Positions 1 through 34,813 of a stretch of 64,000 bases of DNA are shown in pieces. The stretch lies in NCBI RefSeq assembly GCF_003018255.1, contig NZ_CP027440.1; one strand, given 5' to 3'. Each line of letters opens with the position of its first letter. Position 1 is the stretch's first letter. The notes beneath the pieces were generated by a model, which had not been told where the DNA came from, made no database searches, and saw nothing but the letters and a program-made list of their open reading frames with translations. This DNA is from Escherichia coli (GTDB lineage Bacteria; Pseudomonadota; Gammaproteobacteria; Enterobacterales; Enterobacteriaceae). Position numbers and translations under genes: made by a program.

Positions 1-1046
1 CCGTTCAGCTTGTCGTTTTCCTGGCTGATGTGCGAAAGCATCTCTTCGGCAATACCATGCGAATACGGCACCGCCACACAGAAGCTGGCCCCGGCAGGCA
101 TACTGTTCCATACCGGCGTAAAATCGAAACTGGCATCTACGCTGGCGGATTCATCATTTAACGCCACAAAGCTATGCCAGCCGTCGTTGCTCATTTCGAA
201 GCGTACGCCAGCAAAAGAAGGCATTAATCGCTGGTAGCCAAACCCCAGCAACCTGGCGCTGACAACAATACGCTGGCGTACTGGCGTTTTTTCAGCAGCA
301 CGCTCTTCCAGGCCAAAGCTGGCTTGCCAGCGTTTTTTACCGCTCAACAAATCACTTGCGATCGCCGTGGCTTCGGTATCCTGCTGGTCATCTTTAAACA
401 GCATATCCGTACTGGAAAACACCAGCATCTTGTCCTGATAAGTCGCGAACATCAGGGCGTTATTGCCGTTATAGCGCAACTGATAAACCGGGATGGTTTC
501 ACTATTTAGCTTAATACTACTGATTTCCGTTTTGCTTAACTGGCTGTCGCTGGTAGCGGCAAACAACAATGGCTCCAACAGTTTGCTTAAACCACTGCGC
601 TGGATCAGCACCATGTAATGTGAAAGATGGCCTTGTTTATCGTGCCATAGCGCCGCCTGCGCGGGCTGATCTAAGAGTGACGAAAAGAGCTTATCTTTCA
701 GCGTGAGATCGTGTTCATAGACAATGCGGCGAATGCTGCCTTCAATGCCCAGACGATCGGCATGATTCTGATAATAGAAAACGAAATCTTCACTCAGAAC
801 ATCGTGGAGAAACGGAATGGTAAGGAGGTCTTTGGGAAGCTGGCTCAGAGAGTCGCTGTCGAGAAAGAGGTCCGGCTCATTGAGATCGATTTGCAGATTG
901 TTGTGCACCACCAGCGGCGACAACGTTTTTTCTGGCCCACTGCCAGCATATTGCAACGCCCAGACGCCAGCGGAAAGCAGTACTATTGCGCCCAAACCTA
1001 CAAGACCATAGAACCGCCAGCCTTTCGCCTTTTTTTCACCACTCAT
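1..1046 (-). CDS. yfaA: DUF2138-family protein YfaA, N-terminal part (gene continues beyond window start)
   Basis: Manual minus-strand translation from the ATG at 1046-1044 stays open to position 1 (MSGEKKAKGWRFYGLVGLGAIVLLSAGVWALQYAGSG...), with a signal/TM-like N-terminus. It is absent from the ORF track only because it has no stop inside the window. Position downstream of gyrA matches my recollection of E. coli synteny. Confidence 0.6.
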   Translation of the reverse strand, partial: MSGEKKAKGWRFYGLVGLGAIVLLSAGVWALQYAGSGPEKTLSPLVVHNNLQIDLNEPDLFLDSDSLSQLPKDLLTIPFLHDVLSEDFVFYYQNHADRLGIEGSIRRIVYEHDLTLKDKLFSSLLDQPAQAALWHDKQGHLSHYMVLIQRSGLSKLLEPLLFAATSDSQLSKTEISSIKLNSETIPVYQLRYNGNNALMFATYQDKMLVFSSTDMLFKDDQQDTEATAIASDLLSGKKRWQASFGLEERAAEKTPVRQRIVVSARLLGFGYQRLMPSFAGVRFEMSNDGWHSFVALNDESASVDASFDFTPVWNSMPAGASFCVAVPYSHGIAEEMLSHISQENDKLN

Positions 1047-1194
1047 TGCCACATTCCTTGTGTAAAGCCAGCCATTTTTTACGAGCACAGCAAAACTTTA
1101 CCGCGCCCTAATACGACAAAAGCCCAGACTTTGCAGCCTGGACTTTTCAATTCAAACAAGGGAGATAGCTCCCTTTTGGCATGAAGAAGTAAAA

Positions 1195-3822: not shown

Positions 3823-3968
3823 CTAACCGCTATCCCTCTACTGTATCCCGGATTCAAAGGTCGCAAATTATAACACAGCCGCGCAGTTTGAGGTAAACCT
3901 ATACGCTTTATTCACATCCAATGCCTGATATACTCGTTTGTCTTGCCAATTACGGAGTAGAAGTGCCA

Positions 3969-4691
3969 ATGAATGCCGAAAAATCGCCGGTAAACCATAA
4001 CGTAGACCACGAAGAGATCGCTAAATTTGAAGCTGTCGCCTCCCGCTGGTGGGATCTTGAAGGTGAGTTCAAACCGCTGCACCGCATTAACCCGCTGCGT
4101 CTGGGCTATATTGCCGAGCGTGCTGGCGGTTTATTTGGCAAAAAGGTGCTCGATGTCGGTTGTGGCGGCGGCATTCTGGCCGAGAGTATGGCGCGCGAAG
4201 GTGCGACGGTGACCGGTCTGGATATGGGCTTTGAGCCATTGCAGGTGGCAAAGCTGCACGCGCTGGAAAGCGGCATTCAGGTGGATTACGTGCAGGAAAC
4301 CGTGGAAGAGCACGCGGCAAAACATGCCGGGCAGTATGATGTGGTGACCTGCATGGAGATGCTGGAGCACGTCCCCGATCCGCAGTCAGTGGTCAGAGCC
4401 TGTGCGCAACTGGTGAAACCGGGCGGCGATGTCTTTTTCTCGACGCTTAACCGCAACGGCAAGTCATGGCTGATGGCGGTGGTTGGCGCGGAATATATTT
4501 TGCGCATGGTGCCCAAAGGCACGCATGATGTGAAGAAGTTTATTAAACCGGCAGAGCTGCTGGGCTGGGTGGATCAGACCAGTCTTAAAGAGCGACATAT
4601 AACCGGGTTACATTACAACCCGATCACTAATTCCTTTAAGCTCGGCCCCGGCGTGGATGTGAACTATATGCTGCACACGCAGAATAAGTGA
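3969..4691 (+). CDS. ubiG: bifunctional 3-demethylubiquinone / 2-polyprenyl-6-hydroxyphenol O-methyltransferase
   Basis: ORF 3921-4691; the internal start [20 protein letters not shown] at 3969 matches the UbiG N-terminus as I recall it. SAM-methyltransferase motif [13 protein letters not shown]. Divergent from gyrA. Confidence 0.92.
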
Positions 4692-4727
4692 GGTTGTTGT
4701 TTGGATTCATCCGGCAACCGCGCCAAT

Positions 4728-4809
4728 GCCTGATGCGACGCTTGCCGCGTCTTATCAGGCCTACAAATGCTCTCCGTAGGCCTGATAAGGCGTTTACGCC
4801 GCATCCGGC
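4728..4809. repeat. REP/BIME element (two inverted REP units) between ubiG and yfaL
   Basis: GCCTGATGCGACGCTTGCCGCGTCTTATCAGGCCTAC at 4728-4764 and the inverted copy GTAGGCCTGATAAGGCGTTTACGCCGCATCCGGC at 4777-4809; classic REP consensus. Confidence 0.6.
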
Positions 4810-4831
4810 AATAGTGATGGTCAGACAGCGA

Positions 4832-7800
4832 TTACCATTTCACCGTCATCGACAAAAACCCTGCCGTCTGGGCAAAATCATCACTCCCTTTCTGCCACGC
4901 CACGCTGCCGCGCAGGGACACTCGCTGACTGATATTGCCCGTGACTCCCACTTTTATTTCACCCCGTTGCTTCACCCCATCGTCACTGATAGTGCTGCCA
5001 TCTTCTTCAATTTCCGTCGCATGGGGATCGTGATAATAATTCAGATCTAATGTTGGTATGACATGAACAGCGGTACGCCATTCGCTGTGTAAACCCAGCC
5101 GCGTCTGAATATCATCACCCTGCGATTGTGACACGCGCGCATGGTTAGCGGCGGTAAAATCATCCTGCTGCACGCCCTGATAAATCACCTGCGCCTGCGG
5201 TTCAATCACCACACCACGCCCCGGTAACCATTGATACCCGGCTTCCAGCGAGGCGATAATCCCCGACGAGTGGTAATGATCCACGCCATCGTCTTGTTCA
5301 GAAACATCATTGTTAAACCACGCATATTGCAGCCAGCTATCCAGCCAGACCCCCTGCTTCTGATTACCGTGCTGATACCAGCTTGAGGTCAGCCCAACGG
5401 CATAACCGTGGTTCTGGTTATCGGCGCGAGTTCCGCTCATATTCGAGCGGCTGTCGCCCTGGTTATCGCTGTAGCCACCAACAATCCCAAGCATCCACTC
5501 GCCATCATCACCCCAGTGCCTGCTAAACAGATCGCCGCTAAGCTGCACCGTAGAAGTGTCTTCATGCTGAGCCAGTTGCCCTGCCGCCGTGTAATGATAA
5601 CGCCCGCCGATAACGCGTAAATTCAGCGTCTGACCATCGCCACCAGCGTGATCGCGTCGCTCCATCACAAATGCCTGATTTGCCGCACGTAGGTTATTAA
5701 AATATCCACCAACTTTGGCATTCAACACCGGCTGGTAAGCAGGCGTAGGTCCAGGGTCGGGGGTTGGGTCGGGATCCGGCGTGGGATCAGGATCTGGAGT
5801 CGGGTCCGGATCGGGCGGCGGCGTCGGAGTGACTTCTTGCGATCGCAGATACCAGTCATTGTTATCTTCCACCAGCGTATAGTCATACGCCCCCATATTG
5901 ACGTAGCCGCTTCCTGCCAGACGGAACTGCGCATTGTTTTGAAACTGCGTGGGATCAGCTGCGAAATCAACCACTTTAATACCTGTAGATGTCGGCTCAC
6001 CAATACCCGTAATGGGGTTAATTACCACGGCCGTGTTGCCAGCAGTATTACCGTTCAATACCAGTTGGTCACTTGCCGAGTCATCGCCGTTTAATTCGCT
6101 GTCGAGCAGTAGCGTACCGCCGCCGGTATAATCACCATTTACCGTCAGCGTGTCGCCAGCGACGCCATTTTGCAGGCTAATCGCACCGGACGTATTGGTC
6201 AGATTGCCATTAACCGTCACGTCGGAAAGATAAGTCAGGCTGTCAGTTTCAAGGTTGGTATTAAGCTCGCCTGTCAGCGTCACGCCATCGGTGGCATTCA
6301 CCAACGTACCGTCGCCGCTAAACAGCGAGGCATCCAGCACCTGGTTCGTATCCTGCTGCGTCAATCGCAACACAGTACCATCGGTTATGTCGATATCGCC
6401 GCCAGAGGTGGCATCGATTGAGCGAATATCCTGATTTTGCCCGGTTTCAAAAACACCGTCTTCCCCCACCCACAGTGAAGAAACATAAGGAATAATATTC
6501 TCCGCTTCACCTTTTAGCGTTCCGTCCTCCACACGTACCGCAGACGTCGCAGTGCCGCTGGCGGTCAACTCCAGCGTACCGCCGCCACTTTTAGTCAACG
6601 TGCTTACGCTATCCAGTTGTTGCCCGGTACTATCCGCCATCAACCCGCCCCATTGCGTATCTACGCCATCCTCAACGTGTATTTCGCCATCAGCGCGCAT
6701 TTCAATATTCCTGCCCTGACCTGTTGTAGCCGAGCGAGTGTCAACATCAGTCGTCACATCCATTTCACTGTGTTGTTGGGGATCTGTGAAGATCACTGAA
6801 CGGTTGTAACTTGTGTCCCCCAATTGCGAATTATCGCTGACTTCAAGCGTACCGGAGGCGATTTGCGTATTACCGAGATAACCGTTGTTATTCGCCAGCG
6901 TTACGCGCTGATCCCCCGCATTAATGACGACATAAACGCCATTCTGGCTGGCATCACTGCCGCCAATATGTAAATCATCGCCACTGCTGATATCAACGAC
7001 ATCATTACTGCCAATCACTGTCCCCCCGCTGCCGCTGATTTGCAGACCGTCATTGTATGAGCTATCGCCATCCCAGGTGGTGAAATCAGAGAGATCCAAT
7101 ACTCCGCCATTTAGCACGATCGATTGCGGATCGCTCTGCATTGCCCGTAAATCGGCCTGATTCCCCGCTAGCGACAATACGGCGTTATCTTCCACCACAA
7201 TATCGCCGGTTAATGCCATCGACTGCGCCCCTGTCAGGAGATAGCTGCCATCTTGCGCTACCGTCAACTGTCCTTCACCCTGAATCGAGCCGGAAAAACC
7301 GCCCTGGTTTACGGTAACATTGCCGCCTGCGTCGATATTCAAAATGCCATTAGCAAAACCGGTTAATGAGTGCACAAACGTTTGTTGTGTATTGCCAACA
7401 TTCAGTTCTGCCTGATACTCAGAATGAACAGTGCTGCCGACCATCAGACCAAAGCAATCCTGCGGATCGCTCTGACAGTGCGTGTCGCCGACATTCATTA
7501 ACTCATCGCTGCGCCCCAACGTCACCTCGCCATTCTGGATACTTATCTCGCCGGTAAACGCATTATTGTCGGCATTGAGGACTAACTCTCCCGCTCCCTC
7601 TTTAACGATGACTCCCGTTCCGGCAAGAGAATCAATCGCGCCATCGTTGCTGGTATTGCCTATTACCAGCGTTTTATCGGCGGCAATGTTAAATTCAGCC
7701 ACACTATGACCGATATACATAAAGCCCCCCGCCGCTGCCGTCGCCGAATGGTCATATCCCGAGGCGCTGTTATTTTCATCAATCATCACACCATTGTTTT

Positions 7801-8596
7801 GGTCATAATTATCATCAACAGAAATATCAATAAGATACGGGGATGTGGTGCTGCTGGTATAAATTGCTCCGCCATAACCTTCTGCATAGTTATTGGTAAA
7901 GGAGGTATTATTAATTATCGTTTTTCCTGAAAGATGTGTGTTATCCGTACTATTATCCGTAACATCAATAGCGCCGCCATCCCCATCACTATAACTTGTT
8001 GATGTATATGCCTGGTTATTATTAAAAGCATCATCACTTAAATAGTCGTCATTATTGATGGTATAAATTGCACCGCCTTTGCCGTCATTAGCGATGTTAT
8101 TGTGAAATACGGCGTTAGTGACACGTAAATCGGCGGCACCGGTATCATTGGTACCGGCAGAATAGATTGCTCCGCCATAGCCTCCTGCAACATTACTGTC
8201 GAAAATAACATTCGCAAGATTTATCGTTGAGTTTTCTTTAGCAAAGATAGCCCCACCATTATTATATTCGCCACTAACCGAGTTATCAGCAAACAGGGTC
8301 ATCCCTGTTTCATTTTGTGGTGAAATCGTAAATTCAGCACTTTGCTGCAAAAATACTGCGCCACCGCTGGCATTATTGGCCATACCCGAAAAAATCAACC
8401 ATTGCCCATCCGCGATGCTCCAGTCCTGCATATTGCCCGAAAGGCTTTGCCTGCTGGCCTGACAGTTCGCTTTGATATCATATCCCTGGCATGAATCGAT
8501 GACCGCTGCGGCACCGTTACCAGAGAAAAGAGATGCAATCATTGACGGGAGTAAAGATAAATACTCCTTGCGTAGAAAGATAATCCGCATATTCAT
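4832..8596 (-). CDS. yfaL: AIDA-I-type autotransporter adhesin (passenger with beta-helix repeats, Pro-rich linker, C-terminal beta-barrel)
   Basis: 1254-aa ORF with an N-terminal signal peptide (true start may be the Met 2 codons in, at 8590), repetitive GGAIY / N-rich passenger, a TPDPDP linker and a C-terminal barrel domain ending ..FLSMTVKW. Confidence 0.9.
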   Translation of the reverse strand: MNMRIIFLRKEYLSLLPSMIASLFSGNGAAAVIDSCQGYDIKANCQASRQSLSGNMQDWSIADGQWLIFSGMANNASGGAVFLQQSAEFTISPQNETGMTLFADNSVSGEYNNGGAIFAKENSTINLANVIFDSNVAGGYGGAIYSAGTNDTGAADLRVTNAVFHNNIANDGKGGAIYTINNDDYLSDDAFNNNQAYTSTSYSDGDGGAIDVTDNSTDNTHLSGKTIINNTSFTNNYAEGYGGAIYTSSTTSPYLIDISVDDNYDQNNGVMIDENNSASGYDHSATAAAGGFMYIGHSVAEFNIAADKTLVIGNTSNDGAIDSLAGTGVIVKEGAGELVLNADNNAFTGEISIQNGEVTLGRSDELMNVGDTHCQSDPQDCFGLMVGSTVHSEYQAELNVGNTQQTFVHSLTGFANGILNIDAGGNVTVNQGGFSGSIQGEGQLTVAQDGSYLLTGAQSMALTGDIVVEDNAVLSLAGNQADLRAMQSDPQSIVLNGGVLDLSDFTTWDGDSSYNDGLQISGSGGTVIGSNDVVDISSGDDLHIGGSDASQNGVYVVINAGDQRVTLANNNGYLGNTQIASGTLEVSDNSQLGDTSYNRSVIFTDPQQHSEMDVTTDVDTRSATTGQGRNIEMRADGEIHVEDGVDTQWGGLMADSTGQQLDSVSTLTKSGGGTLELTASGTATSAVRVEDGTLKGEAENIIPYVSSLWVGEDGVFETGQNQDIRSIDATSGGDIDITDGTVLRLTQQDTNQVLDASLFSGDGTLVNATDGVTLTGELNTNLETDSLTYLSDVTVNGNLTNTSGAISLQNGVAGDTLTVNGDYTGGGTLLLDSELNGDDSASDQLVLNGNTAGNTAVVINPITGIGEPTSTGIKVVDFAADPTQFQNNAQFRLAGSGYVNMGAYDYTLVEDNNDWYLRSQEVTPTPPPDPDPTPDPDPTPDPDPTPDPGPTPAYQPVLNAKVGGYFNNLRAANQAFVMERRDHAGGDGQTLNLRVIGGRYHYTAAGQLAQHEDTSTVQLSGDLFSRHWGDDGEWMLGIVGGYSDNQGDSRSNMSGTRADNQNHGYAVGLTSSWYQHGNQKQGVWLDSWLQYAWFNNDVSEQDDGVDHYHSSGIIASLEAGYQWLPGRGVVIEPQAQVIYQGVQQDDFTAANHARVSQSQGDDIQTRLGLHSEWRTAVHVIPTLDLNYYHDPHATEIEEDGSTISDDGVKQRGEIKVGVTGNISQRVSLRGSVAWQKGSDDFAQTAGFLSMTVKW
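5745..5830 (-). repeat. in-frame Pro/Asp/Thr tandem repeat (PTPPPDPDPTPDPDPTPDPDPTPDPGPTP) inside yfaL
   Basis: Near-perfect 18-nt periodicity on the coding strand; linker between the passenger and translocator domains. Confidence 0.7.
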
Positions 8597-9123
8597 CTAA
8601 CCATCATTTTCTATAAGATGGCGTATTTAATCGCATTATGCGATATAGGGTATTTTTCTTTTGTAAATTCTGCCCCTGATGTAATAACTATTTTGTTATT
8701 ATCTGATAATTAATTTAGATGCATCACAATTCAAATTAATAACTTTAAGGTAAATCGGTTATATTTAAACTAAATTAAAGCAATAAATAATATTCTTATA
8801 ATAAATACAAAAGTAACAAATTGGCTTAGTATTTAACAATAACCGCATAGAAAACAACCATTTCGACATCAACAATCGCTTACATTCGCTTATATATTGA
8901 CCACAACTGATACATCAGATTATGTGATGACTCGTGCTTAGATCAATTTTTGCAATCATTAGCAAAAAGATTAATAAACCATCTATATCAATTTATCCAA
9001 CCTATTCTGCCGTTCAAGAAATCACCGAACAGTTATTTTTAACAAATTTTTCTCTTCCCATTGACTTTCCCGGACACCTTGTCTGACCTAAGGTGCGCGA
9101 AAGCCACTTTTTCCTTCCTGAGT

Positions 9124-9208
9124 TATCCACAAAGTTATGCACTTGCAAGAGGGCCATTTTCACACTATCTTGCAGTGAATCCCAAACATACCCCCTATAT
9201 ATAGTGTT
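9124..9208 (+). promoter_or_regulatory. nrdAB promoter region with a DnaA box (TTATCCACA, 9124-9132) and two NrdR-box-like palindromes (9161-9177, 9193-9208)
   Basis: Exact DnaA-box nonamer; CACACTATCTTGCAGTG and CCCTATATATAGTGTT resemble the NrdR box consensus; located about 80-160 bp upstream of the nrdA ATG. Confidence 0.5.
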
Positions 9209-9284
9209 CTAAGCAGCTTCCCTCACTACAGGTAGTCTGCATGAAACTATTGCGGAAAGAATTCCAAAAACAGGTACGACATAC

Positions 9285-11570
9285 ATGAATCAGAATCTGC
9301 TGGTGACAAAGCGCGACGGTAGCACAGAGCGCATCAATCTCGACAAAATCCATCGCGTTCTGGATTGGGCGGCAGAAGGACTGCATAACGTTTCGATTTC
9401 CCAGGTCGAACTGCGCTCCCACATTCAGTTTTATGACGGTATCAAGACCTCTGACATCCACGAAACCATTATCAAGGCTGCCGCAGACCTGATCTCCCGT
9501 GATGCGCCGGATTATCAGTATCTCGCCGCGCGCCTGGCGATCTTCCACCTGCGTAAAAAAGCCTACGGCCAGTTTGAGCCGCCTGCGCTGTACGACCACG
9601 TGGTGAAAATGGTCGAGATGGGCAAATACGATAATCATCTGCTGGAAGACTACACGGAAGAAGAGTTCAAGCAGATGGACACGTTTATCGATCACGACCG
9701 TGATATGACCTTCTCTTATGCTGCCGTTAAGCAGCTGGAAGGCAAATATCTGGTACAGAACCGCGTGACCGGCGAAATCTACGAAAGCGCCCAGTTCCTT
9801 TATATTCTGGTTGCCGCGTGCCTGTTCTCGAACTACCCGCGTGAAACGCGCCTGCAATACGTGAAGCGTTTTTACGACGCGGTTTCCACATTTAAAATTT
9901 CGCTGCCGACGCCAATCATGTCCGGCGTGCGTACCCCGACTCGTCAGTTCAGCTCCTGCGTACTGATCGAGTGCGGCGACAGCCTGGATTCCATCAACGC
10001 CACCTCCAGCGCGATTGTTAAATACGTTTCCCAGCGTGCCGGGATCGGCATCAACGCCGGGCGTATTCGTGCGTTGGGTAGCCCGATTCGCGGTGGCGAA
10101 GCATTCCACACCGGCTGTATTCCGTTTTACAAACATTTCCAGACAGCGGTGAAATCCTGCTCTCAGGGCGGTGTGCGCGGCGGTGCGGCAACACTGTTCT
10201 ACCCGATGTGGCATCTGGAAGTGGAAAGCCTGCTGGTGTTGAAAAACAACCGTGGGGTTGAAGGCAACCGCGTGCGTCATATGGACTACGGGGTACAAAT
10301 CAACAAACTGATGTATACCCGTCTGCTGAAAGGTGAAGATATCACCCTGTTCAGCCCGTCCGACGTACCGGGGCTGTACGACGCGTTCTTCGCCGATCAG
10401 GAAGAGTTTGAACGCCTGTACACCAAATATGAGAAAGACGACAGCATCCGCAAGCAGCGTGTGAAAGCCGTTGAGCTGTTCTCGCTGATGATGCAGGAAC
10501 GTGCGTCTACCGGTCGTATCTATATTCAGAACGTAGACCACTGCAACACCCACAGCCCGTTTGATCCGGCTATTGCACCAGTGCGCCAGTCTAACCTGTG
10601 CCTGGAAATCGCCCTACCGACCAAACCACTGAACGACGTCAACGACGAGAACGGTGAAATCGCGCTGTGTACGCTTTCTGCTTTCAACCTGGGCGCAATT
10701 AACAGCCTGGATGAACTGGAAGAGCTGGCAATTCTGGCGGTTCGCGCACTCGACGCACTGCTGGATTATCAGGATTACCCGATCCCGGCCGCTAAACGTG
10801 GAGCGATGGGGCGTCGTACGCTGGGTATTGGTGTGATCAACTTCGCTTACTACCTGGCGAAGCACGGTAAACGCTACTCCGACGGCAGCGCCAACAACCT
10901 GACGCATAAAACCTTCGAAGCCATTCAGTATTACCTGCTGAAAGCGTCTAATGAGCTGGCGAAAGAGCAAGGCGCGTGCCCGTGGTTTAACGAAACCACT
11001 TACGCGAAAGGGATCCTGCCGATCGATACCTATAAGAAAGATCTGGATGCCATCGCTAATGAGCCGCTGCATTACGACTGGGAAGCACTGCGTGAGTCAA
11101 TCAAAACGCACGGCCTGCGTAACTCCACGCTTTCTGCTCTGATGCCGTCAGAGACCTCTTCGCAGATCTCTAACGCCACTAACGGTATTGAACCGCCGCG
11201 TGGTTACGTCAGCATCAAAGCGTCGAAAGACGGTATTCTGCGCCAGGTGGTGCCGGACTACGAGCATCTGCACGACGCCTATGAACTGCTGTGGGAAATG
11301 CCGGGTAACGATGGCTATCTGCAACTGGTGGGTATCATGCAGAAATTTATCGATCAGTCGATCTCTGCTAACACCAACTACGATCCGTCACGCTTCCCGT
11401 CAGGAAAAGTGCCGATGCAGCAACTGCTGAAAGACCTGCTCACCGCCTACAAATTCGGGGTCAAAACGCTGTATTATCAGAACACCCGTGACGGTGCTGA
11501 AGACGCACAAGACGATCTGGTACCGTCAATCCAGGACGATGGCTGCGAAAGCGGCGCATGTAAGATCTGA
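9285..11570 (+). CDS. nrdA: ribonucleoside-diphosphate reductase 1 alpha subunit (class Ia)
   Basis: 761-aa ORF starting [26 protein letters not shown] (ATP-cone), catalytic Cys/Glu region, C-terminal CESGACKI. Confidence 0.97.
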
Positions 11571-11578
11571 TATTGAGA

Positions 11579-11610
11579 TGCCGGATGCGGCGTAAAATGC
11601 CTTATCCGGC
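11579..11610. repeat. REP-like palindrome in the nrdA-nrdB spacer
   Basis: GCCGGATGCGGCGTAAAATGCCTTATCCGGC imperfect palindrome of REP type. Confidence 0.45.
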
Positions 11611-13724: not shown

Positions 13725-13926
13725 ACCCTATCGCCTGTCGTTTTTTATTAACGACAATGACTATAGATGTTTAGCTGAGGAAAATCTTAATAATACGTGT
13801 TGTATTGACGAGTATCTTATGCCGGGAACAAGTCATCTCGCTCAAAATAATTGCAATTAAGGATAACCCACAGACTTTAATGAAGAGTGGTATCGGATAG
13901 CACATAAGTGCCATCCGGTAGTTAAT

Positions 13927-16638: not shown

Positions 16639-20703
<4,065 letters not shown>

Positions 20704-20717
20704 AACTCCCATCTGAT

Positions 20718-20749
20718 GCCCGGTAAGCATGTTGTTACCGGGCATTTTT
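20718..20749 (+). terminator. rho-independent terminator of glpACB
   Basis: GC-rich hairpin GCCCGGTAAGCATGTTGTTACCGGGC followed by ATTTTT. Confidence 0.6.
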
Positions 20750-20896
20750 GCGTCCACGATTCCGCGCTCAATGTATACGTTGCAACGCAGTGAAAATTCC
20801 TCTGAAAACGTCTCGCAAAGGCTGAAACTGGCAGATGTCAAAGGCCTGGGATAACCGTAATGTCGCGTTATCATAAATATCAGGTGACGGACAACC

Positions 20897-21856
20897 ATGA
20901 CCGAATCAACAACCTCCTCCCCGCATGATGCGGTATTTAAAACCTTTATGTTCTCGCCCGATACGGCGCGAGATTTTCTCGAAATACATCTGCCAGAGCC
21001 GCTGCGCAAGCTTTGCAACCTGCAAACCTTACGCCTGGAACCCACCAGCTTTATTGAAAAAAGTTTACGCGCTTACTACTAGGATGTTTTGTGGTCGGTG
21101 GAAACCAGCGACGGTGACGGCTATATCTACTGCGTGATTGAACATCAAAGTTCTGCAGAAAAGAATATGGCTTTTCGACTAATGCGCTATGCCACTGCCG
21201 CCATGCAACGTCACCTGGATAAAGGCTATGACAGAGTTCCGCTGGTGGTGCCATTGCTGTTTTATCATGGCGAAACCTCGCCCTACCCGTACTCACTCAA
21301 CTGGCTGGATGAGTTTGACGATCCGCAACTTGCCCGGCAGTTGTACACCGAAGCTTTTCCGTTGGTGGATATCACCATCGTACCTGACGATGAGATCATG
21401 CAACATCGGCGTATAGCTCTGCTGGAACTGATTCAAAAGCATATTCGCGACCGCGATTTAATCGGTATGGTCGACAGGATCACCACGCTTTTGGTTAGAG
21501 GCTTCACTAATGACAGCCAGCTACAAACGCTGTTTAATTATCTGCTGCAATGCGGCGATACCTCCCGTTTCACCCGCTTTATTCAGGAGATTGCCGAACG
21601 TTCACCACTACAAAAGGAGAGATTAATGACTATTGCTGAACGGCTACGGCAGGAAGGACATCAAATTGGCTGGCAGGAAGGTAAATTAGAAGGCTGGCAG
21701 GAGGGGAAATTGGAGGGTTTGCAGAAAGGCAAAGTAGAAGGTATGCATGAACAAGCCATTAAAATTGCCTTGCGCATGCTGGAACAGGGCTTTGAACGTG
21801 AGATTGTGCTGGCGACAACCCAACTCACTGATGCTGATATTCCGAACGGTCATTAA
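20897..21856 (+). pseudogene. yfaD: Rpn-family (PDDEXK nuclease-like, YhgA-like) protein gene interrupted by an in-frame TAG at 21080-21082
   Basis: Two same-frame ORFs (20897-21082 and 21089-21856) separated only by TAG. Translation across it reads ..[34 protein letters not shown].., a continuous Rpn N-terminal motif as I recall the family. The 255-aa downstream ORF in the track begins at a TTG. Confidence 0.55.
21626..21856 (+). CDS. candidate intragenic C-terminal small protein of the Rpn gene (76 aa, same frame)
   Basis: Internal ATG at 21626 preceded by AAGGAG with 6-nt spacing (..caAAAGGAGagattaATG..); encodes [39 protein letters not shown]...; the same SD+ATG block is duplicated at ypaA. 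Confidence 0.35.
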
Positions 21857-21868
21857 AAGGAGAGATTA

Positions 21869-22042
21869 ATGACTATTGCTGAACGGCTACGGCAGGAAGG
21901 ACATCAAATTGGCTGGCAGGAAGGCATGCATGAACAAGCCATTAAAATTGCTTTGCGCATGCTGGAGCAGGGCATTGATCGTGATCAGGTGCTCGCGGCC
22001 ACTCAGCTAAGCGAAGCCGATCTGGCAGCGAATAACCACTAA
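21869..22042 (+). CDS. ypaA: free-standing Rpn C-terminal-tail small protein (57 aa)
   Basis: ATG at 21869 with AAGGAG at 21857-21862; [57 protein letters not shown]. Its first ~70 nt are identical to 21611-21680 inside yfaD. Below the 60-aa ORF-track cutoff. Confidence 0.6.
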   Translation: MTIAERLRQEGHQIGWQEGMHEQAIKIALRMLEQGIDRDQVLAATQLSEADLAANNH

Positions 22043-22049
22043 TTAACAC

Positions 22050-22079
22050 AGGCCCACAGCCGATCCCCATGGGCCTTTG
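22050..22079. terminator. hairpin between convergent ypaA and rhmA (possible bidirectional terminator)
   Basis: AGGCCCA...TGGGCCT stem followed by TTTGA. Confidence 0.35.
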
Positions 22080-22082
22080 ATA

Positions 22083-22886
22083 TCAATAACTACCTTTTAC
22101 GCGTGGCCCATTTTTGCCTGATTTAAACATCGCCAGTCGTTGATCCAGGGCATCGCTGTAGAGCATCGTGTCAACGCCAACAGCGACAAAGTTCGCTCCC
22201 CACGCCAGGCATTGCTGCGCCATATCAGGAGCCACAGCCAGAAAACCAGCCGCTTTACCCGCAGCACGGATCCGCCGAATGCTGGTTTCAATAATTCGCT
22301 GCACTTCCGGGTGCCCGGCGTTATCCGGGTAGCCCAACGACGCAGAAAGATCCGCAGGTCCAATAAACACGCCATCAATCCCTTCAACATCGAGGATTTC
22401 GTCCAGGTTATCCAGTGCCGTTTTACTTTCCACCTGCACCAACAGACAAAGCGAATCGTTGACTTGCGCCATGTAATTCTCAATGCGTCCCCAGCGCGCA
22501 GCCCGTGCCACACTGGCCCCAACACCACGCTCACCGTAGGGAGGATAGCGCGTGGCAGACACCACCTGACGTGCCTGATCGGCAGTATCGACCATTGGGA
22601 TCAGTAGAGTTTGCGCGCCAATATCCAGGACTTGTTTAATCAGCGGCTTACTGCCTTCCACCGGACGGATCACGGGGTGGCTGGCATAGGGCGCTACCGC
22701 CTGTAGCTGGTGATAAAGATCCTGAATGGTGTTTGGCGCATGCTCCCCGTCAATCAGCAACCAGTCATAACCGGAAGTGGCGGCAATTTCTGCCATATAG
22801 GCAGTCGTTGAGCTTAACCACAGACCAATTTGCACTTCGCCCTTGCGTAAACGTTCTTTAAAGGGATTGGTTAATAATGCGTTCAT
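22083..22886 (-). CDS. rhmA: 2-keto-3-deoxy-L-rhamnonate aldolase (HpcH/HpaI family)
   Basis: 267-aa ORF starting [26 protein letters not shown]; class II aldolase fold motifs. Confidence 0.9.
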
Positions 22887-22902
22887 CGTGTTCCTTAACT
22901 AT

Positions 22903-23990
22903 TTAATGATGTGCCACGTCGGTCTGCGCAACAGTGCGATTTACACGCAGAGTGAAAATAATCAGCGAACCGATGACCGCCACCGCTGCCAGCGTCAGTA
23001 ATCCCGCCGCATCGCTGGAAAATAACGTTTCTGCTTTCACGCGCAGGATCGGGGCAATAAACCCGCCCACTGCACCAAACAGGTTTATAAAACCAATCCC
23101 CGCAGCCAGCGCCGTACCGGAAAGAAGCTGTGTCGGCATCGTCCAGAACACTGGCTGTACGGCAATAAACCCGATGGCTGCAACACACAGCGCAACGATC
23201 GCCAGTAATGTCAGCGCCGCGACATTACGCCGCTCGCCGGTTTTATCGGAATAGCGCGGAATAAGCCAGGTCCCAAACAAGGCCGCGACCCACGGAATGG
23301 CGGTGACCACCGACGCCGTAAAGCCCACTTTTGTCCCCAACAATGCAGCAACCTGCGTCGGCAGGAAGAAAATTAATCCGTAAACCGCCACCTGAATGGT
23401 CAGGTAGATAATCGCCAGTTGCCAGACTCGGCCATTACGCAGCGCATCGCTCAATCGAGAAGTCACTTTCTGTTGTTCTTCACTTGCCAGTTGGTTGATA
23501 AGCAACGTTTTTTCTTCTTTACTCAGAAAACGTGCCTGCTCCGGCGTGTCATCAAGCCAAAAGAATGTGAATACCCCAGCGCCGACTGCCAGCAATCCTT
23601 CAATCACAAACATCCAGAACCAGCCGGGATGCCCCATAAATCCATGCATCTCCAGCAGCGCGCCGGAAAGCGGTGATCCCAGTGTTAACGCCAACGGTGC
23701 GCCCATATAGAACAGCCCCATAATGCTGGCGCGATTACGCTGCGGAAACCATTGCGAGGTGAGATAAATCATACCAGGGAAGAACCCGGCCTCCGCAGCA
23801 CCAAGCAGAGTACGAACGATCAGAAATTTCGCTTCAGTATCGGCCCATGCCATGGCTGCCGAAAGAAATCCCCACAGCAGTGTTGTCGTACCAATCCAGG
23901 TTCTTGCCCCCAGTTTGCGCATCAAAAGATTCGCCGGAACACCCAGAAACGCATATACCACAAAGAAAATGCCTGCTCCCAGACCAGCCC
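22903..23990 (-). pseudogene. rhmT: L-rhamnonate transporter (ACS-family MFS), N-terminally truncated
   Basis: ORF 22903-24039; the MFS sequence begins only at ..GLGAGIFFVVYAFLGVPANLLMRKLGAR (the TM2 region). About 50 N-terminal residues including TM1 are missing, and the 5' end of the ORF overlaps rhmR' in another frame. Confidence 0.55.
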
Positions 23991-24464
23991 TTCGATAATA
24001 CTTTGCTGTACAGCTGCAGGTTGCCAGGCAAGCAGGCATTTACCTATTCCGGAGCGATAAAGCGAAAGGCTTTTTCCTTCATGGGAACGCACGCTGATAG
24101 TGGCTGATGACTCCACTTTCAAAATGTAATAAGCGCTGCCGTTATCAATAATCCCCAGGTGACATAACAGCCCAGTGGTATCCATCAGTTGCGTCAAACG
24201 CGGTCGAGCCAGTTCCCGGAGATCCATCTTGCTTAACGCATGACCGGAAAGCTCCACCAGCCTGGTCCACAAACAAAAATTTTCCTGGTGATCAAGGCTA
24301 AGAAAACGCTGACGCCTGAGTTCATTAAGCAGCAAATAGGCCGTGCTTTTAGGGATCCCCAATGTGTCAATGATCGTCGCAGCACTACAGGGGCCAATGC
24401 GGGCAATCAAATTGAGAATATCAATAGCCCGTGTCAGGGCGGGAACTTTGCTTGATTCCAACAT
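23922..24464 (-). pseudogene. rhmR: IclR-family transcriptional regulator, C-terminally truncated (180 aa versus about 260 expected)
   Basis: N-terminal IclR HTH (ALTRAIDILNLIARIGPCSAATIIDTLGIPKSTAYLLLNEL); the effector domain ends prematurely in ..WYMRFWVFRRIF*; overlaps the rhmT' ORF by about 118 nt. Confidence 0.55.
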
Positions 24465-24683
24465 ACTGGACTCCAGTCTTAGATACTGGAATCAGTCTCG
24501 TTGCTCAGGGGGAGTAAAATTGTGAAGCTCATCAAATCCCGCTCCTCGTCCAGCGGACTGGAGAAATTACGCACAAATTTGTGAATTAGCGCACGGATTT
24601 TTTCTTATTGAGTACAACAGGTTGGACAAATTTTGCCGGAGGGGGAATGTGCCGGTGCAGTAAACCGGCACAGAGTGGCGGAA

Positions 24684-25886
24684 TCAGACAGATAAGGTCA
24701 TGGACTCAACAACCTCAATCCAGCCATGCTCACTGGCGATGTCCTGGCCGTTTAACCAACGGCGCAGCATATTCAGTGCCATCATTGCGCACACTTCCTG
24801 ACGGATAGCCAGGCTGTAGCGTGTAGTGCTGAAACGCACACGCAGAGCGAAAGTGCCATCTGGCGTGGATAGCGCAAAGTTGAGATGCTCGTTCTCGAAA
24901 CCCGAAACAGCCAGTGCCAGCCCGGCAAAATGGTTGGCCCGCCGTTCTGTAATCCAGTGCGCAGTTTGCGCCAGGGTTTCTTCCTGTGAAGGAACCACTT
25001 CACACGCCAGCAATGGAGCACCTGCGCGAGAAAGTTGCAAAGCCAATAAACCGCCGGTGAATTGCTCGCTCAACGTCAGGCTGAACTGGCGGTTTTGCAA
25101 TTCGCGACTGATCTGCGCGGGCAGTCCTTCGGTGCCTTCGAAAATCACGCTCTGTCCGGCAACACGTTTAACGTCCAGCCACAGTTTTTCCATCGCCTGT
25201 TGCTCGCTTGCCGGTCCGGTGAGTTTCAGTTCGATGATAGGCATTGAGGAGCGATAACCCATTGTTACGCCCGGCGGCAGTTGTAGAGTGTCCAGGCTTT
25301 GTGCCAGATCGCTTTCCGAACGACCAAAGGTAGTTAAACGCAGACAAACCGGCGGCTGTGGTAAAGAAAAACGCTCGCGCAGGCGCGGCAGGATTTCGTG
25401 CTCGACCATCACCTTAAATTCTGACGGTACGCCGGGGGTAAAGAACATCAGGCAACGATTAAGCTGCACGGCAAAACCACAGGCGGTGCCTACCGGGTTA
25501 TTGATAAATTCAGCACTGGCAGGTAGCTCCGCTTGTTTACGGTTGCTCGGTGCCATTACTCGTCCACGTTCGTGGAAATAGCGTTCCATCTCTTTGAGCC
25601 AGGCTTCATGCAGCACCAGGCCTTCACCTTTTGCTGTCGCAGCGGCGAGTGCGCTTAAATCATCACTGGTCGGCCCCAGCCCGCCGTTAACGATCAGCAC
25701 ATCGGTGTGCTGACTCCGTTCGCGAAGAATGGTGACTAAGTCATCAAGGTTATCCCCCACCGTATTGCGGCGAGATAATGGCAACCCCTGATGAAAGAAA
25801 AAATCGGCCAGCCAGGCAGCGTTAGTGTCAACGATTTGCCCGTGTAACACTTCATCCCCGGTGGATAACATTTCCACTTTTAACAT
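24684..25886 (-). CDS. yfaY: CinA-like protein (MoCF-binding domain plus CinA C-terminal domain)
   Basis: 400-aa ORF starting MLKVEMLSTGDEVLHGQIVDTNAAWLADFF. Confidence 0.85.
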   Translation of the reverse strand: MLKVEMLSTGDEVLHGQIVDTNAAWLADFFFHQGLPLSRRNTVGDNLDDLVTILRERSQHTDVLIVNGGLGPTSDDLSALAAATAKGEGLVLHEAWLKEMERYFHERGRVMAPSNRKQAELPASAEFINNPVGTACGFAVQLNRCLMFFTPGVPSEFKVMVEHEILPRLRERFSLPQPPVCLRLTTFGRSESDLAQSLDTLQLPPGVTMGYRSSMPIIELKLTGPASEQQAMEKLWLDVKRVAGQSVIFEGTEGLPAQISRELQNRQFSLTLSEQFTGGLLALQLSRAGAPLLACEVVPSQEETLAQTAHWITERRANHFAGLALAVSGFENEHLNFALSTPDGTFALRVRFSTTRYSLAIRQEVCAMMALNMLRRWLNGQDIASEHGWIEVVESMTLSV

Positions 25887-25985
25887 GGTTATCTCCTGCT
25901 TTTGTTATCGAATCACTATAACGCAAAGGGAGACAGGGCGTAGTAACAAACTGAATGGCGCGACAGAATGCCGCGCCGGAAGGGA

Positions 25986-26528
25986 TCAGAAACTGGCGTT
26001 AACCCCCACATACGGGCCGTCAGCCACGGCGTTGTCGCGGTTACCGTCTTTACCAGAAAGGTTCAGGTAGCGATAACCCGCCTCAATACTGACTGGACGC
26101 ATAATGGTGTAACGCGCGCCAACATTCGCTTCCTCATAACTTTGAATACCGCTGGAGAGCGAATCCGGAGAGTAGTAATACTCGCCAAACAAACGGAAGC
26201 TGTTGCCAATTTTCCACTGCAAACCACCTCCTACCGCTGCGGCATAACCTTCATCGCCGTAATTCGGGTTGGTGTAAACGCCTTTTCCGCCAACGGTCGC
26301 CATTAACGGCCCGAGAGGCAGATTCAACCCCAGCCCCACGCCCGCGACGTCACCGTCGTCGTCGTTATGTGTCCAGTTACCGCTTAACGCCAGGCCCGTT
26401 GATTCAGTCCCAAAACCGACACCAATATTGGTGTATTCTTTACCCGCCTGGCCGCTGATGCTCATTGCATTGACCGATGCAGAAACCAACAGCATTCCGG
26501 CCAGACCTGCTAGCGCAATTTTTTTCAT
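25986..26528 (-). CDS. yfaZ: outer-membrane beta-barrel protein YfaZ
   Basis: ORF 25986-26603; signal-peptide start MKKIALAGLAGMLLVSASVNA at 26528; C-terminal aromatic residue (..VGVNASF). Confidence 0.8.
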   Translation of the reverse strand: MKKIALAGLAGMLLVSASVNAMSISGQAGKEYTNIGVGFGTESTGLALSGNWTHNDDDGDVAGVGLGLNLPLGPLMATVGGKGVYTNPNYGDEGYAAAVGGGLQWKIGNSFRLFGEYYYSPDSLSSGIQSYEEANVGARYTIMRPVSIEAGYRYLNLSGKDGNRDNAVADGPYVGVNASF

Positions 26529-26806
26529 TTTCCCCTCTCCCACAAGCAATAAATCAAAATTCCCAAAGCTGCGGGATTGTACTGCCTGGCACAGAGGATT
26601 CAATGAGCGAAAAAAGGGATCTAGTCACTTATTGTAACTAAATACTTCTTAAATAATTAAACGCCGAAAAAATAAACATACTTTATCGATACACACAAAA
26701 ATAATAATAAGTGCAGTTATCATCGCAAAAGAGATTACTGTCACTTTCACATATTTCTGAGTTACCGTATTCTCATGGTTTCTTTTTATTTATAAGGAAT
26801 ACCCCT

Positions 26807-27232
26807 GTGCGACAACGGACTATTGTATGCCCTTTGATTCAAAATGATGGTGCTTATTTGCTGTGTAAAATGGCCGACGATCGCGGCGTTTTCCCCGGTC
26901 AATGGGCGCTTTCGGGTGGCGGCGTAGAGCCTGGCGAACGAATTGAAGAGGCACTACGCCGCGAAATTCGCGAAGAACTGGGAGAACAGCTGCTTTTGAC
27001 AGAAATCACGCCGTGGACCTTCAGCGATGATATTCGCACCAAGACGTATGCAGATGGTCGCAAGGAAGAGATTTATATGATTTACCTGATTTTTGACTGC
27101 GTTTCTGCCAACCGAGAAGTGAAAATAAACGAAGAGTTTCAGGACTACGCGTGGGTAAAACCTGAAGATCTGGCGCACTATGATTTGAATGTCGCCACCC
27201 GAAAAACGTTACGTTTGAAAGGTCTTCTGTAA
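26807..27232 (+). CDS. nudI: Nudix nucleoside-triphosphatase NudI
   Basis: Nudix box [24 protein letters not shown]; the 141-aa product requires a GTG start at 26807 ([10 protein letters not shown]); the ORF-track 5' extension to 26711 has no support. Confidence 0.8.
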
Positions 27233-30292: not shown

Positions 30293-32274
30293 TGAAAACC
30301 GTCGTTTTTGCCTACCACGATATGGGATGCCTCGGTATTGAAGCCCTGCTGTCTGCCGGTTACGAAATTAGCGCCATTTTTACCCATACCGATAATCCCG
30401 GTGAAAAAGCCTTTTATGGTTCGGTGGCTCGTCTGGCGGCGGAAAGAGGCATTCCAGTTTATGCGCCGGATAACGTTAATCATCCGCTGTGGGTGGAACG
30501 TATTGCCCAACTCTCACCAGAGGTGATTTTCTCTTTTTATTATCGCCATCTTATTTGCGACGAGATTTTGCAGCTCGCTCCCGCAGGTGCATTTAATCTG
30601 CACGGTTCGCTGTTACCAAAATATCGTGGTCGCGCGCCGCTGAACTGGGTGCTGGTGAACGGTGAAACGGAAACTGGCGTTACATTGCACCGAATGGTGA
30701 AACGTGCCGATGCCGGGGCCATTGTGGCGCAACTGCGCATTGCCATTGCGCCAGACGATATCGCCATTACGCTGCATCATAAATTGTGCCATGCCGCGCG
30801 CCAGCTACTGGAACAGACATTACCCGCCATTAAACACGGTAATATTCTGGAAATCGCCCAGCGCGAAAACGAAGCCACCTGTTTTGGTCGCAGAACACCG
30901 GAAGACAGTTTCCTCGAATGGCATAAACCGGCATCCGTGCTGCACAACATGGTGCGTGCCGTTGCCGATCCGTGGCCGGGTGCCTTCAGCTATGTTGGTA
31001 ATCAGAAATTTACCGTCTGGTCGTCACGCGTGCATTCTCATGCGCCCGCAGCACAACCGGGGAGCGTGATTTCTGTTGCGCCACTGCTGATTGCCTGTGG
31101 CGATGGCGCGCTGGAAATCGTCACCGGACAGGCGGGCGACGGCATTACTATGCAGGGCTCGCAATTAGCGCAGACGCTGGGCCTGGTGCAAGGTTCACGC
31201 TTGAATAGCCAGCCTGCCTGCACCGCCCGACGCCGTACTCGGGTACTCATCCTCGGGGTGAATGGCTTTATTGGCAACCATCTGACAGAACGCCTGCTGC
31301 GCGAAGATCATTATGAAGTTTACGGTCTGGATATCGGCAGCGATGCGATAAGCCGTTTTCTGAATCATCCGCATTTTCACTTTGTCGAAGGCGATATCAG
31401 TATTCATTCCGAATGGATTGAGTATCACGTCAAAAAATGTGATGTCGTCTTGCCGCTGGTGGCGATAGCCACGCCGATTGAATATACCCGCAACCCACTG
31501 CGCGTATTTGAACTCGATTTTGAAGAGAATCTGCGCATTATCCGCTACTGCGTGAAGTACCGTAAGCGAATCATCTTCCCGTCGACTTCAGAAGTTTATG
31601 GGATGTGTAGCGATAAATACTTCGATGAGGACCATTCTAATTTAATCGTCGGCCCGGTGAATAAACCACGCTGGATTTATTCGGTGTCTAAACAATTACT
31701 TGATCGAGTGATCTGGGCCTATGGCGAAAAAGAGGGTTTACAGTTCACCCTCTTCCGCCCGTTTAACTGGATGGGGCCTCGACTGGATAACCTTAATGCG
31801 GCACGAATCGGCAGCTCCCGCGCTATTACGCAACTCATTCTCAATCTGGTAGAAGGTTCACCGATTAAGCTGATTGATGGCGGAAAACAAAAACGCTGCT
31901 TTACTGATATTCGCGATGGTATCGAGGCGTTATACCGCATCATCGAAAATGCGGGAAATCGCTGCGACGGCGAAATTATCAACATTGGCAATCCTGCGAA
32001 CGAAGCGAGCATTGAGGAACTGGGCGAGATGCTGCTGGCGAGCTTCGAAAAACATCCGCTGCGCCATCACTTCCCACCGTTTGCGGGCTTTCGTGTTGTC
32101 GAAAGTAGCAGCTACTACGGCAAAGGATATCAGGACGTAGAGCATCGTAAACCGAGCATCCGCAATGCCCGCCGCTGCCTGGACTGGGAACCCAAAATTG
32201 ATATGCAGGAAACCATCGACGAAACGCTGGATTTCTTCCTGCGCACCGTTGATCTTACGGATAAACCATCATGA
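30292..32274 (+). CDS. arnA: bifunctional UDP-glucuronate decarboxylase / UDP-Ara4N formyltransferase
   Basis: 660-aa ORF; N-terminal formyltransferase domain and C-terminal SDR domain ([10 protein letters not shown]). Confidence 0.96.
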
Positions 32275-33161
32275 CCAAAGTAGGCTTACGCATTGATGTC
32301 GATACCTTTCGTGGCACCCGTGAAGGCGTGCCGCGTCTGCTGGAAATCTTGAGTAAGCATAATATTCAGGCCAGCATTTTTTTCAGCGTCGGCCCGGACA
32401 ATATGGGCCGCCATCTCTGGCGACTGGTGAAGCCACAGTTTTTGTGGAAGATGCTGCGCTCAAACGCGGCATCGCTTTATGGCTGGGATATTTTACTGGC
32501 AGGTACGGCCTGGCCGGGTAAAGAGATTGGTCATGCCAATGCCGATATCATTCGTGAAGCGGCTAAACATCACGAAGTCGGCCTGCACGCCTGGGATCAC
32601 CATGCCTGGCAAGCCCATAGCGGTAATTGGGATCGGCAAACAATGATCGACGATATCGCACGCGGCCTTCGCACCCTGGAAGAAATTATCGGCCAACCGG
32701 TAACCTGCTCCGCAGCCGCTGGCTGGCGTGCCGACCAGCAGGTGATCGAAGCAAAAGAAGCGTTCCATTTGCGCTACAACAGCGATTGTCGTGGGGCGAT
32801 GCCGTTTCGTCCACTGCTCGAATCAGGAAACCCTGGTACTGCGCAAATTCCGGTGACCTTACCCACCTGGGATGAAGTGATTGGTCGGGATGTGAAAGCA
32901 GAAGATTTTAACGGTTGGTTACTCAATCGCATCCTGCGAGATAAAGGCACGCCGGTTTATACCATTCATGCAGAAGTTGAAGGCTGCGCTTATCAGCATA
33001 ATTTTGTGGATCTCCTTAAACGGGCAGCCCAGGAAGGCGTGACATTTTGCCCTTTAAGCGAACTGTTATCAGGGATGTTGCCGCTCGGACAAGTTGTTCG
33101 CGGAAATATTGCCGGACGTGAAGGCTGGCTGGGTTGCCAACAAATTGCGGGTAGTCGCTGA
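32271..33161 (+). CDS. arnD: 4-deoxy-4-formamido-L-arabinose-phosphoundecaprenol deformylase
   Basis: 296-aa polysaccharide-deacetylase-like ORF overlapping the arnA stop (ATGA). Confidence 0.93.
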
Positions 33162-34813
33162 TGAAATCGGTACGTTACCTTATCGGCCTCTTCGCGTTTA
33201 TTGCCTGCTATTACCTGTTACCGATCAGCACGCGTCTGCTATGGCAACCCGATGAAACGCGTTATGCGGAAATCAGTCGAGAAATGCTGGCATCCGGCGA
33301 CTGGATTGTGCCCCATCTGTTAGGGCTACGTTATTTCGAAAAACCCATTGCCGGATACTGGATTAACAGCATTGGGCAATGGCTATTTGGCGCGAATAAC
33401 TTTGGTGTGCGGGCAGGCGTTATCTTTGCGACCCTGTTAACTGCCGCGCTGGTGACCTGGTTTACTCTGCGCTTATGGCGCGATAAACGTCTGGCTCTAC
33501 TCGCCGCAGTGATTTATCTCTCATTGTTTATTGTCTATGCCATTGGCACTTATGCCGTGCTCGATCCGTTTATTGCCTTCTGGCTGGTGGCGGGAATGTG
33601 CAGCTTCTGGCTGGCAATGCAGGCACAGACGTGGAAAGGCAAAAGCGCGGGATTTTTACTGCTGGGAATCACTTGCGGCATGGGGGTGATGACCAAAGGT
33701 TTTCTCGCCCTTGCCGTGCCGGTATTAAGCGTGCTTCCATGGGTTGCAACGCAAAAACGCTGGAAAGATCTCTTTATTTACGGCTGGCTGGCGGTCATCA
33801 GTTGCGTACTGACGGTTCTCCCCTGGGGACTGGCGATAGCGCAGCGGGAGCCTGACTTCTGGCACTATTTTTTCTGGGTTGAGCATATTCAACGCTTTGC
33901 AATGGATGATGCCCAACATAGAGCTCCGTTCTGGTACTACTTGCCGGTCATCATTGCCGGTAGCCTGCCGTGGCTGGGATTACTCCCCGGAGCACTGTAC
34001 GCAGGCTGGAAAAACCGCAAGCATTCCGCAACCGTCTATTTGTTGAGCTGGACGATAATGCCGCTGTTGTTTTTCTCCGTCGCCAAAGGCAAATTGCCCA
34101 CCTATATTCTTTCTTGCTTTGCTCCTCTGGCAATGCTGATGGCGCATTACGCTTTGCTGGCAGCAAAAAATAATCCTCTGGCGTTGCGGATTAATGGCTG
34201 GATTAACATCGCTTTTGGCGTCACTGGCATTATTGCCACATTTGTGGTCTCCCCCTGGGGAGCAATGAACACGCCGGTGTGGCAAACCTTCGAGAGCTAT
34301 AAAGTCTTTTGTGCCTGGTCGATTTTTTCGCTATGGGCATTTTTCGGCTGGTACACCTTAACAAACGTCGAAAAGACCTGGTCTTTTGCCGCGCTTTGCC
34401 CGCTGGGGCTGGCGTTGCTGGTAGGATTTTCAATTCCTGACAGAGTCATGGAAGGAAAACATCCGCAATTTTTTGTCGAGATGACACAAGAATCACTTCA
34501 GCCAAGCCGCTATATTCTTACTGATAGCGTCGGTGTTGCCGCAGGTCTGGCATGGAGCCTGCAACGCGATGACATCATCATGTATCGCCAGACAGGTGAG
34601 TTGAAATACGGCCTTAATTATCCGGATGCGAAAGGGAGATTTGTCAGCGGTGATGAGTTCGCAAACTGGCTTAATCAACATCGTCAGGAGGGGATTATTA
34701 CACTCGTGCTTTCGGTTGACCGCAATGAAGATATCAACAGTCTCGCCATTCCGCCCGCAGATGCCATCGATCGTCAGGAGCGTCTGGTGCTGATTCAGTA
34801 TCGTCCCAAATGA
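33161..34813 (+). CDS. arnT: undecaprenyl-phosphate-alpha-L-Ara4N:lipid A arabinosyltransferase (GT83)
   Basis: 550-aa polytopic membrane protein. Confidence 0.95.

Follow-up and report, generated by a model that had tools for sequence, protein, structure and literature searches.

The L-rhamnonate locus of the analysed Escherichia coli DNA (the whole stretch of 64,000 nucleotides from contig NZ_CP027440.1, hereafter the window) is very probably a decaying remnant of a rhmR-rhmD-rhmT-rhmA operon, shaped by repeat-bounded deletions, carried as an inherited allele and left to neutral drift. Compared with intact loci, it lacks a segment of 1,739 bp that holds all of rhmD and the adjoining ends of rhmT and rhmR, as well as 48 bp inside the retained part of rhmT. 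The larger deletion belongs to a known class of alleles that RefSeq genomes contain and flag; it would come from a textbook mutational process and is a case of ordinary gene loss, while the smaller one appears to be specific to the clone of the window.

Organisation of the rhm locus

By comparison with a 4.64-Mb K-12-type record, the gene order in the window runs through gyrA, yfaL, nrdAB, glpTQ, glpABC, rpnE, rhm, yfaY, yfaZ, nudI, ais, arn and men into nuo. Judged from their 95-100% DNA identity to annotated genomes, the gene identities can be taken as unambiguous. Three genomes with an intact locus were used for comparison, namely LWY24 (L002), the K-12-type record (L003) and 2017.09.02CC (L004), and all three carry, between rpnE and yfaY, yfaU/rhmA, yfaV/rhmT (1,290 nt), rhmD (1,206 nt) and yfaX/rhmR (783 nt). 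In the K-12-type record, the corresponding proteins are 429 aa (RhmT), 401 aa (RhmD) and 260 aa (RhmR) long. A separate rhmD and full-length rhmT and rhmR had been ascribed to K-12 by the first, sequence-only reading of this DNA, and the four-gene locus of the record bears this out. As for the distance between rhmA and yfaY, its estimate of about 1.8 kb for the window agrees with the 1,797 bp found, while the figure of about 3.3 kb given for K-12 has to be corrected to a gap of 3,585 bp.

The window locus occupies the same chromosomal position as the K-12 rhmRDTA genes (yfaX-yfaW-yfaV-yfaU), between rpnE and yfaY. Its RhmA is 98.5% identical in protein to that of K-12, and what is left of rhmT and rhmR is collinear with the K-12 genes at 97-99% DNA identity, whereas rhmD, RhmT residues 1-54 and 315-330, and RhmR residues 166-260 are missing. 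The features of the locus are as follows:

22083..22886, minus strand: rhmA (yfaU), 2-keto-3-deoxy-L-rhamnonate aldolase, 267 aa, intact, with a full-length alignment to K-12-type RhmA
22903..24039, minus strand: chimeric MFS ORF of 378 aa (ORF list and protein alignment)
22903..23982, minus strand: rhmT (yfaV) remnant, codons 55-429 minus codons 315-330 (BLAST, protein alignment, Pfam)
23200..23207: junction of the 48-bp in-frame deletion, with one copy left of the 8-bp direct repeat CGCCAGTA
23971..23982: junction of the 1,739-bp deletion, with one copy left of the 12-bp direct repeat GCCTGCTCCCAG
23971..24464, minus strand: rhmR (yfaX) remnant, codons 1-165, with an intact wHTH and a halved effector domain
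23922..24464, minus strand: IclR-type ORF, truncated RhmR of 180 aa (residues 1-165 of RhmR, the last 15 out of frame from rhmT DNA)
24465..24683: retained rhmR-yfaY intergenic region, collinear with the intact loci
24684..25886, minus strand: yfaY (ORF list)

The ORF list thus has the layout first described, with a 378-aa MFS ORF and a 180-aa IclR ORF that overlap, here by 118 nt. The promoter and operator of the operon presumably lie within the intergenic region 24465..24683.

Several further features were also seen elsewhere in the window. In rpnE/yfaD (20897-21856, plus strand), an in-frame TAG at 21080-21082 leaves two ORFs, 20897..21082 and 21089..21856, in place of one; at 21081 the window has A, where each of the nine genomes compared has C and hence TCG (Ser). 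A 70-bp direct repeat at 21612-21681 and 21855-21924 duplicates the 3' end of rpnE in the downstream fragment ORF 21869-22042, which is annotated as a partial hypothetical protein in other genomes. Positions 1-11610 (gyrA-ubiG-yfaL-nrdA) show only 92.3% identity to the K-12-type record, with many indels, and the inaA-glpQ spacer (13823-13895) falls some 260 bp short of its K-12 counterpart, in which pseudogene fragments, including a LysR fragment, are annotated. Further downstream, by comparison with the K-12-type record, some 3.0 kb (yfbK and most of elaD) is missing at around 45076-45084 and some 2.6 kb (yfbN, yfbO, yfbP) at around 46712-46730; these two gaps are a common polymorphism, since the arrangement is 100% identical in 14EC020, in which a 'deubiquitinase' remnant is annotated.

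The 1,739-bp deletion

When positions 22001-25000 were compared by BLAST with the three intact loci, the alignment fell into two blocks, 22001-23982 and 23971-25000, which overlap at 23971-23982, and the intact genomes hold 1,739 extra bases between the two. Both alignment registers pass through the 12 bases GCCTGCTCCCAG. In the intact locus of 2017.09.02CC, this 12-mer is present twice, with a spacing of exactly 1,739 bp between the copies, and no perfect direct repeat of the 4.2-kb rhmA-rhmR span is longer; a single copy is found in the window. The deletion announced by the sequence-only reading is therefore real, and its junction falls inside the interval expected for it (23960-24000), with 12 bp of microhomology, even though its size had been set too low, at about 1.6 kb, and the further loss of 48 bp had been missed.

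At both deletion sites the spacing of the repeats equals the length deleted and one repeat copy is kept, as is the hallmark of microhomology deletions. No foreign, filler, IS or mobile-element bases were found at either junction, the flanks aligning base for base up to the repeat. The two copies of the 12-mer correspond to rhmT codons 51-54 and rhmR codons 161-165, and they are read as CTG GGA GCA GGC in rhmT vs. C TGG GAG CAG GC in rhmR; because the reading frames differ, the rhmR'-rhmT' fusion is out of frame.

State of the rhm gene products

In total, the 1,739-bp deletion removed RhmT residues 1-54, the whole of RhmD and RhmR residues 166-260. No rhmD sequence was found between rhmA and yfaY in the window, and in intact loci the 1,206-nt rhmD is located in the missing segment, in line with the absence proposed earlier. 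The two flanking genes had been described as truncated and overlapping, and protein alignment and Pfam searches showed them to be so, and fused out of frame.

Concerning RhmR, residues 1-165 are followed by 15 out-of-frame residues. The HTH_IclR domain is complete (residues 9-58), whereas IclR_C, matched at residues 75-165, covers just model positions 2-92 of 174; the product would accordingly fall short of a full-length IclR-type regulator, which has both domains complete. The MFS ORF begins with an ATG and about 19 codons that come, out of frame, from rhmR-derived DNA, after which RhmT is read from residue 55, as anticipated by the proposal that some 50 initial residues had been lost. Its Pfam MFS_1 match begins at model position 34 of 347. 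The lost N-terminus comprises the first transmembrane helix, including the conserved D31/R32. In the homologue DgoT, we take D46 and E133 to be protonation sites and R47 to bind the substrate carboxylate. RhmT D31/R32 align without gaps to D46/R47 of DgoT, whose structure is solved (6e9n), and RhmT E118 has its aligned counterpart in DgoT E133, which is replaced by Q in entry 6e9o (E133Q); a preprint has confirmed E133 as a protonation site. The chimeric product would thus not qualify as a full-length RhmT, an ACS-family MFS protein with 12 TM helices and an Asp-Arg pair in TM1.

The aldolase is in a different state. RhmA is full length (267 aa), with four substitutions vs. the K-12-type protein, and with RhmD gone it is left as an orphan, as had been predicted. 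Taken together, the locus retains an intact rhmA and lacks rhmD, and so is not expected to work as a rhmRDTA operon.

Prevalence and decay of the allele in E. coli

The sequence-only reading had implied that the deletion was unique to this DNA, a view that has to be abandoned. With a 160-nt junction probe matched over its full length, the 1,739-bp junction was recovered in 143 of 5,426 complete E. coli genomes (about 2.6%), and the probe was 100% identical in 43 of these carriers. In carriers, rhmR is flagged by RefSeq as a pseudogene ('incomplete; missing C-terminus'). No paper describing the 1,739-bp rhm deletion was found in a literature search.

In strains 181.1, 21F61, H9Ecoli and APEC O2-211, the junction is identical to the base with that of the window, and the ORF layout is the same, with a chimeric MFS ORF overlapping an IclR pseudogene. 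In three carriers (L001, L005 and L006), the chimeric ORF has been called by RefSeq/PGAP as an intact 394-aa 'MFS transporter' (WP_047340797.1, WP_042107171.1, WP_061360280.1); in L001, for example, it extends over 2904-4088. This ORF lacks TM1 and starts in out-of-frame rhmR sequence.

Additional lesions are present in some carriers: the MFS ORF of TA8571 is interrupted by an internal stop, the rhmR remnant of MB10 has a frameshift, and that of HUE1 (L010, 4406-6331) contains ISEc46, an inserted IS200/IS605-family element with tnpA and a TnpB-like gene. A longer probe, from the junction to yfaY, matched end to end in only 79 of the 143 junction carriers, a shortfall for which an ISEc46 insertion like that of HUE1 would account. 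As for rhmA, yfaU is annotated as intact in all fetched carriers of the 1,739-bp deletion, and the gene is intact in the window and in the seven carrier genomes inspected.

A larger rhm deletion, of the LY180 type (L011, 2841-3366), arose independently and affects the same locus and operon, with different endpoints: the 5' part of rhmA has gone together with all of rhmT, rhmD and rhmR. It was found in 1,239 of the 5,426 complete genomes (23%). With the 143 carriers of the 1,739-bp junction, about a quarter of complete E. coli genomes are therefore without an intact operon.

The 48-bp deletion

At 23200-23207, the window is 48 bases shorter than every comparison genome, whether intact or a carrier of the 1,739-bp deletion. 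There, the 8-mer CGCCAGTA is present in two copies 48 bp apart in intact genomes and in 1,739-bp carriers, and in one copy in the window. The loss is in frame and removes RhmT residues 315-330, in the C-terminal transmembrane region.

A 46-nt probe spanning this junction, each half of which is too short to seed a match, had no match among the 5,426 complete E. coli genomes; a 62-nt probe was uninformative, as genomes in which the 48 bp are present also gave alignments, pieced together by BLAST from two half-matches. The exact 378-aa product of the deletion is encoded on two public contigs. The contig RREC01000137.1, from the draft GCA_005046355.1, is 100% identical to window positions 19903-27039 (7,137 bp), and may come from the same isolate; the stop in rpnE is also present on it. 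A metagenome scan for the 48-bp junction gave no match, and a control scan for the common 1,739-bp junction gave none likewise, so that this collection is silent either way. These data suggest that the 48-bp deletion is specific to the clone of the window.

Both junctions lie at direct repeats and the smaller deletion is in no complete genome, as might be expected if the two losses were assembly or sequencing artefacts produced by collapse at short repeats. Such an origin is scarcely credible: the 1,739-bp junction recurs in its 143 complete genomes from many laboratories, repeats of 12 and 8 bp are far too short for assembly collapse, and the 48-bp deletion is shared with another public assembly, though possibly of the same isolate.

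Origin of the deletion allele in the window

Over 25 kb, the closest complete genome to the window is that of 2017.09.02CC (99.5% identity), in which the locus is intact, while carriers of the deletion reach 98.9%. Over rhmA and the rhmT remnant (about 1.9 kb), the window differs at one site from 2017.09.02CC and at 6-16 sites from carriers. This near-identity to an intact genome was first read as a sign of a de novo deletion; a site-by-site table of the flanks and a rare-allele probe shifted the interpretation towards shared ancestry with recombination.

The two sides of the junction indeed give different pictures. On the rhmT side, the haplotype of the window is nearer to the intact genome than to the RefSeq deletion allele: it is identical to 2017.09.02CC for 1,335 bp, whereas the first mismatch between the window and any carrier examined lies 29-445 bp from the junction. 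On the rhmR side, identity to the carriers extends for 410-545 bp from the junction, and all four intact genomes mismatch the window within 2-43 bp of the repeat. Four positions, namely 23984 (two bases past the repeat), 24174, 24297 and 24346, set the window apart from 2017.09.02CC and group it with the carriers. One carrier, 21F61, is identical to the window over 23538-24392, that is, 855 bp spanning the junction. The flanking allele 24174A is rare, a 33-nt probe requiring it having matched 111 of the 5,426 genomes; among the 60 matches listed, 59 have, like deletion carriers, an IclR annotated as truncated or partial, and one (GF3-3) is intact.

These shared sites suggest that the 1,739-bp allele most likely pre-existed as an E. 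coli polymorphism and would have reached the lineage of the window by descent or by homologous recombination. As the rhmT flank is nearer to an intact genome, a single origin would require recombination with one or more breakpoints near the junction.

That the same deletion arose independently on a 2017.09.02CC-like haplotype, with the 12-bp repeat acting as a recurrent slippage hotspot, is unlikely, yet it has several points in its favour. Besides the affinity of the window to 2017.09.02CC over 25 kb and over rhmA and the rhmT remnant, carriers form at least three haplotypes, and conservation of the 12-bp repeat extends to every intact locus examined. Against it are the four sites at which the window sides with the carriers, the rarity of 24174A and its near confinement to carriers, and the 855 bp of identity to one carrier across the junction; moreover, the flanks are visibly mosaic, which makes recombination a sufficient explanation.

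The mosaic aspect extends to the wider flanks of the locus. Relative to 2017.09.02CC, dense SNP blocks are seen in yfaY (25000-26000) and in arnA-arnD-arnT (31500-33500), a sign of recombination mosaicism around the locus; 25000-25500 alone has 19 SNPs, vs. one differing site between the window and the deletion carriers.

Formation and subsequent fate of the locus

Deletions between short direct repeats, by slipped-strand, RecA-independent events, are classically known from plasmids and from lacI of E. coli. Repeats 1.7 kb apart lie towards the upper end of the range reported for slippage, yet still inside it. The window matches this type of event, as perfect repeats of 12 and 8 bp flank the losses, one copy is kept and no base is added. 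Judged from junction anatomy only, both deletions would have occurred by slipped-strand mispairing or another form of short-homology, RecA-independent recombination during replication. The first joined the two 12-bp copies, and thereby rhmT with rhmR, leaving one copy behind; the second, a later event between the 8-bp repeats, took 16 more residues from an already dead rhmT.

After these events, L-rhamnonate dehydration, dedicated uptake and RhmR regulation would have been lost, whereas rhmA would survive, possibly still transcribed, as a promiscuous 2-keto-3-deoxy-acid aldolase, and the remnants would drift neutrally. The 48-bp loss, together with the stop, the frameshift and the IS insertion in other carriers, fits the neutral decay of dead genes, and it is from this handful of secondary lesions that we infer it. 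For rhmA, a rough calculation gave about 1.9 expected lesions vs. none seen, a difference not statistically distinguishable from chance.

An adaptive loss, in which the removal of RhmR, RhmD and RhmT with retention of rhmA would be favoured (through a de-repressed aldolase or the avoidance of a toxic intermediate) and spread by recombination, appears improbable. The allele is found in small genomes (4.5-4.8 Mb) as well as in large ones (5.0-5.3 Mb, many of them poultry/APEC), a second, independent rhm deletion exists in 1,239 genomes, and rhmA has stayed intact wherever the 1,739-bp carriers were inspected, all of which such selection would explain. However, the larger and far commoner deletion also destroys rhmA, and there is thus no consistent retention of this gene; the remnants gather stops, frameshifts and IS elements, as expected of junk; and clonal poultry isolates predominate among the carriers sampled.

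Less probable still is a broader reading, in which the 12-bp pair would be a recurrent hotspot and/or the allele would be positively selected and move between unrelated E. coli lineages by recombination. If it were true, these lineages would include phylogroup-A-sized as well as poultry/APEC genomes; with 23% of genomes carrying the larger deletion, the loss of L-rhamnonate catabolism would be a repeatedly favoured trait, and the orphan rhmA, freed from RhmR repression, would be kept for another role. A remnant formed by repeat-bounded deletions, inherited and drifting neutrally is by far the preferred reading.

Significance for L-rhamnonate metabolism and genome annotation

Since RhmD is absent, L-rhamnonate would not be dehydrated via the rhm pathway in the strain of the window. 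The dedicated transporter and the regulator are predicted to be non-functional, and rhmA may still be transcribed from the retained region upstream of rhmR. The loss of L-rhamnonate catabolism predicted at the outset is nevertheless uncertain as a phenotype, and a growth test may show no difference, because K-12 BW25113, which has an intact operon, reportedly fails to grow on L-rhamnonate (2026 preprint). The same preprint could assign no substrate to RhmT, and L-rhamnonate is among the dead-end metabolites listed by EcoCyc curators (PMC3781023).

The absence of a working L-rhamnonate operon in this strain, as in about a quarter of sequenced E. coli, should be taken into account in metabolic models and annotations. 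A small annotation error is exposed as well, the automated pipeline taking the chimeric rhmR'-rhmT' frame of carriers for an intact MFS transporter of 394 aa. The locus might be of use as a lineage marker, and it offers a natural example of stepwise pseudogene decay, in which a large deletion is followed by small deletions, stops, frameshifts and an IS insertion.
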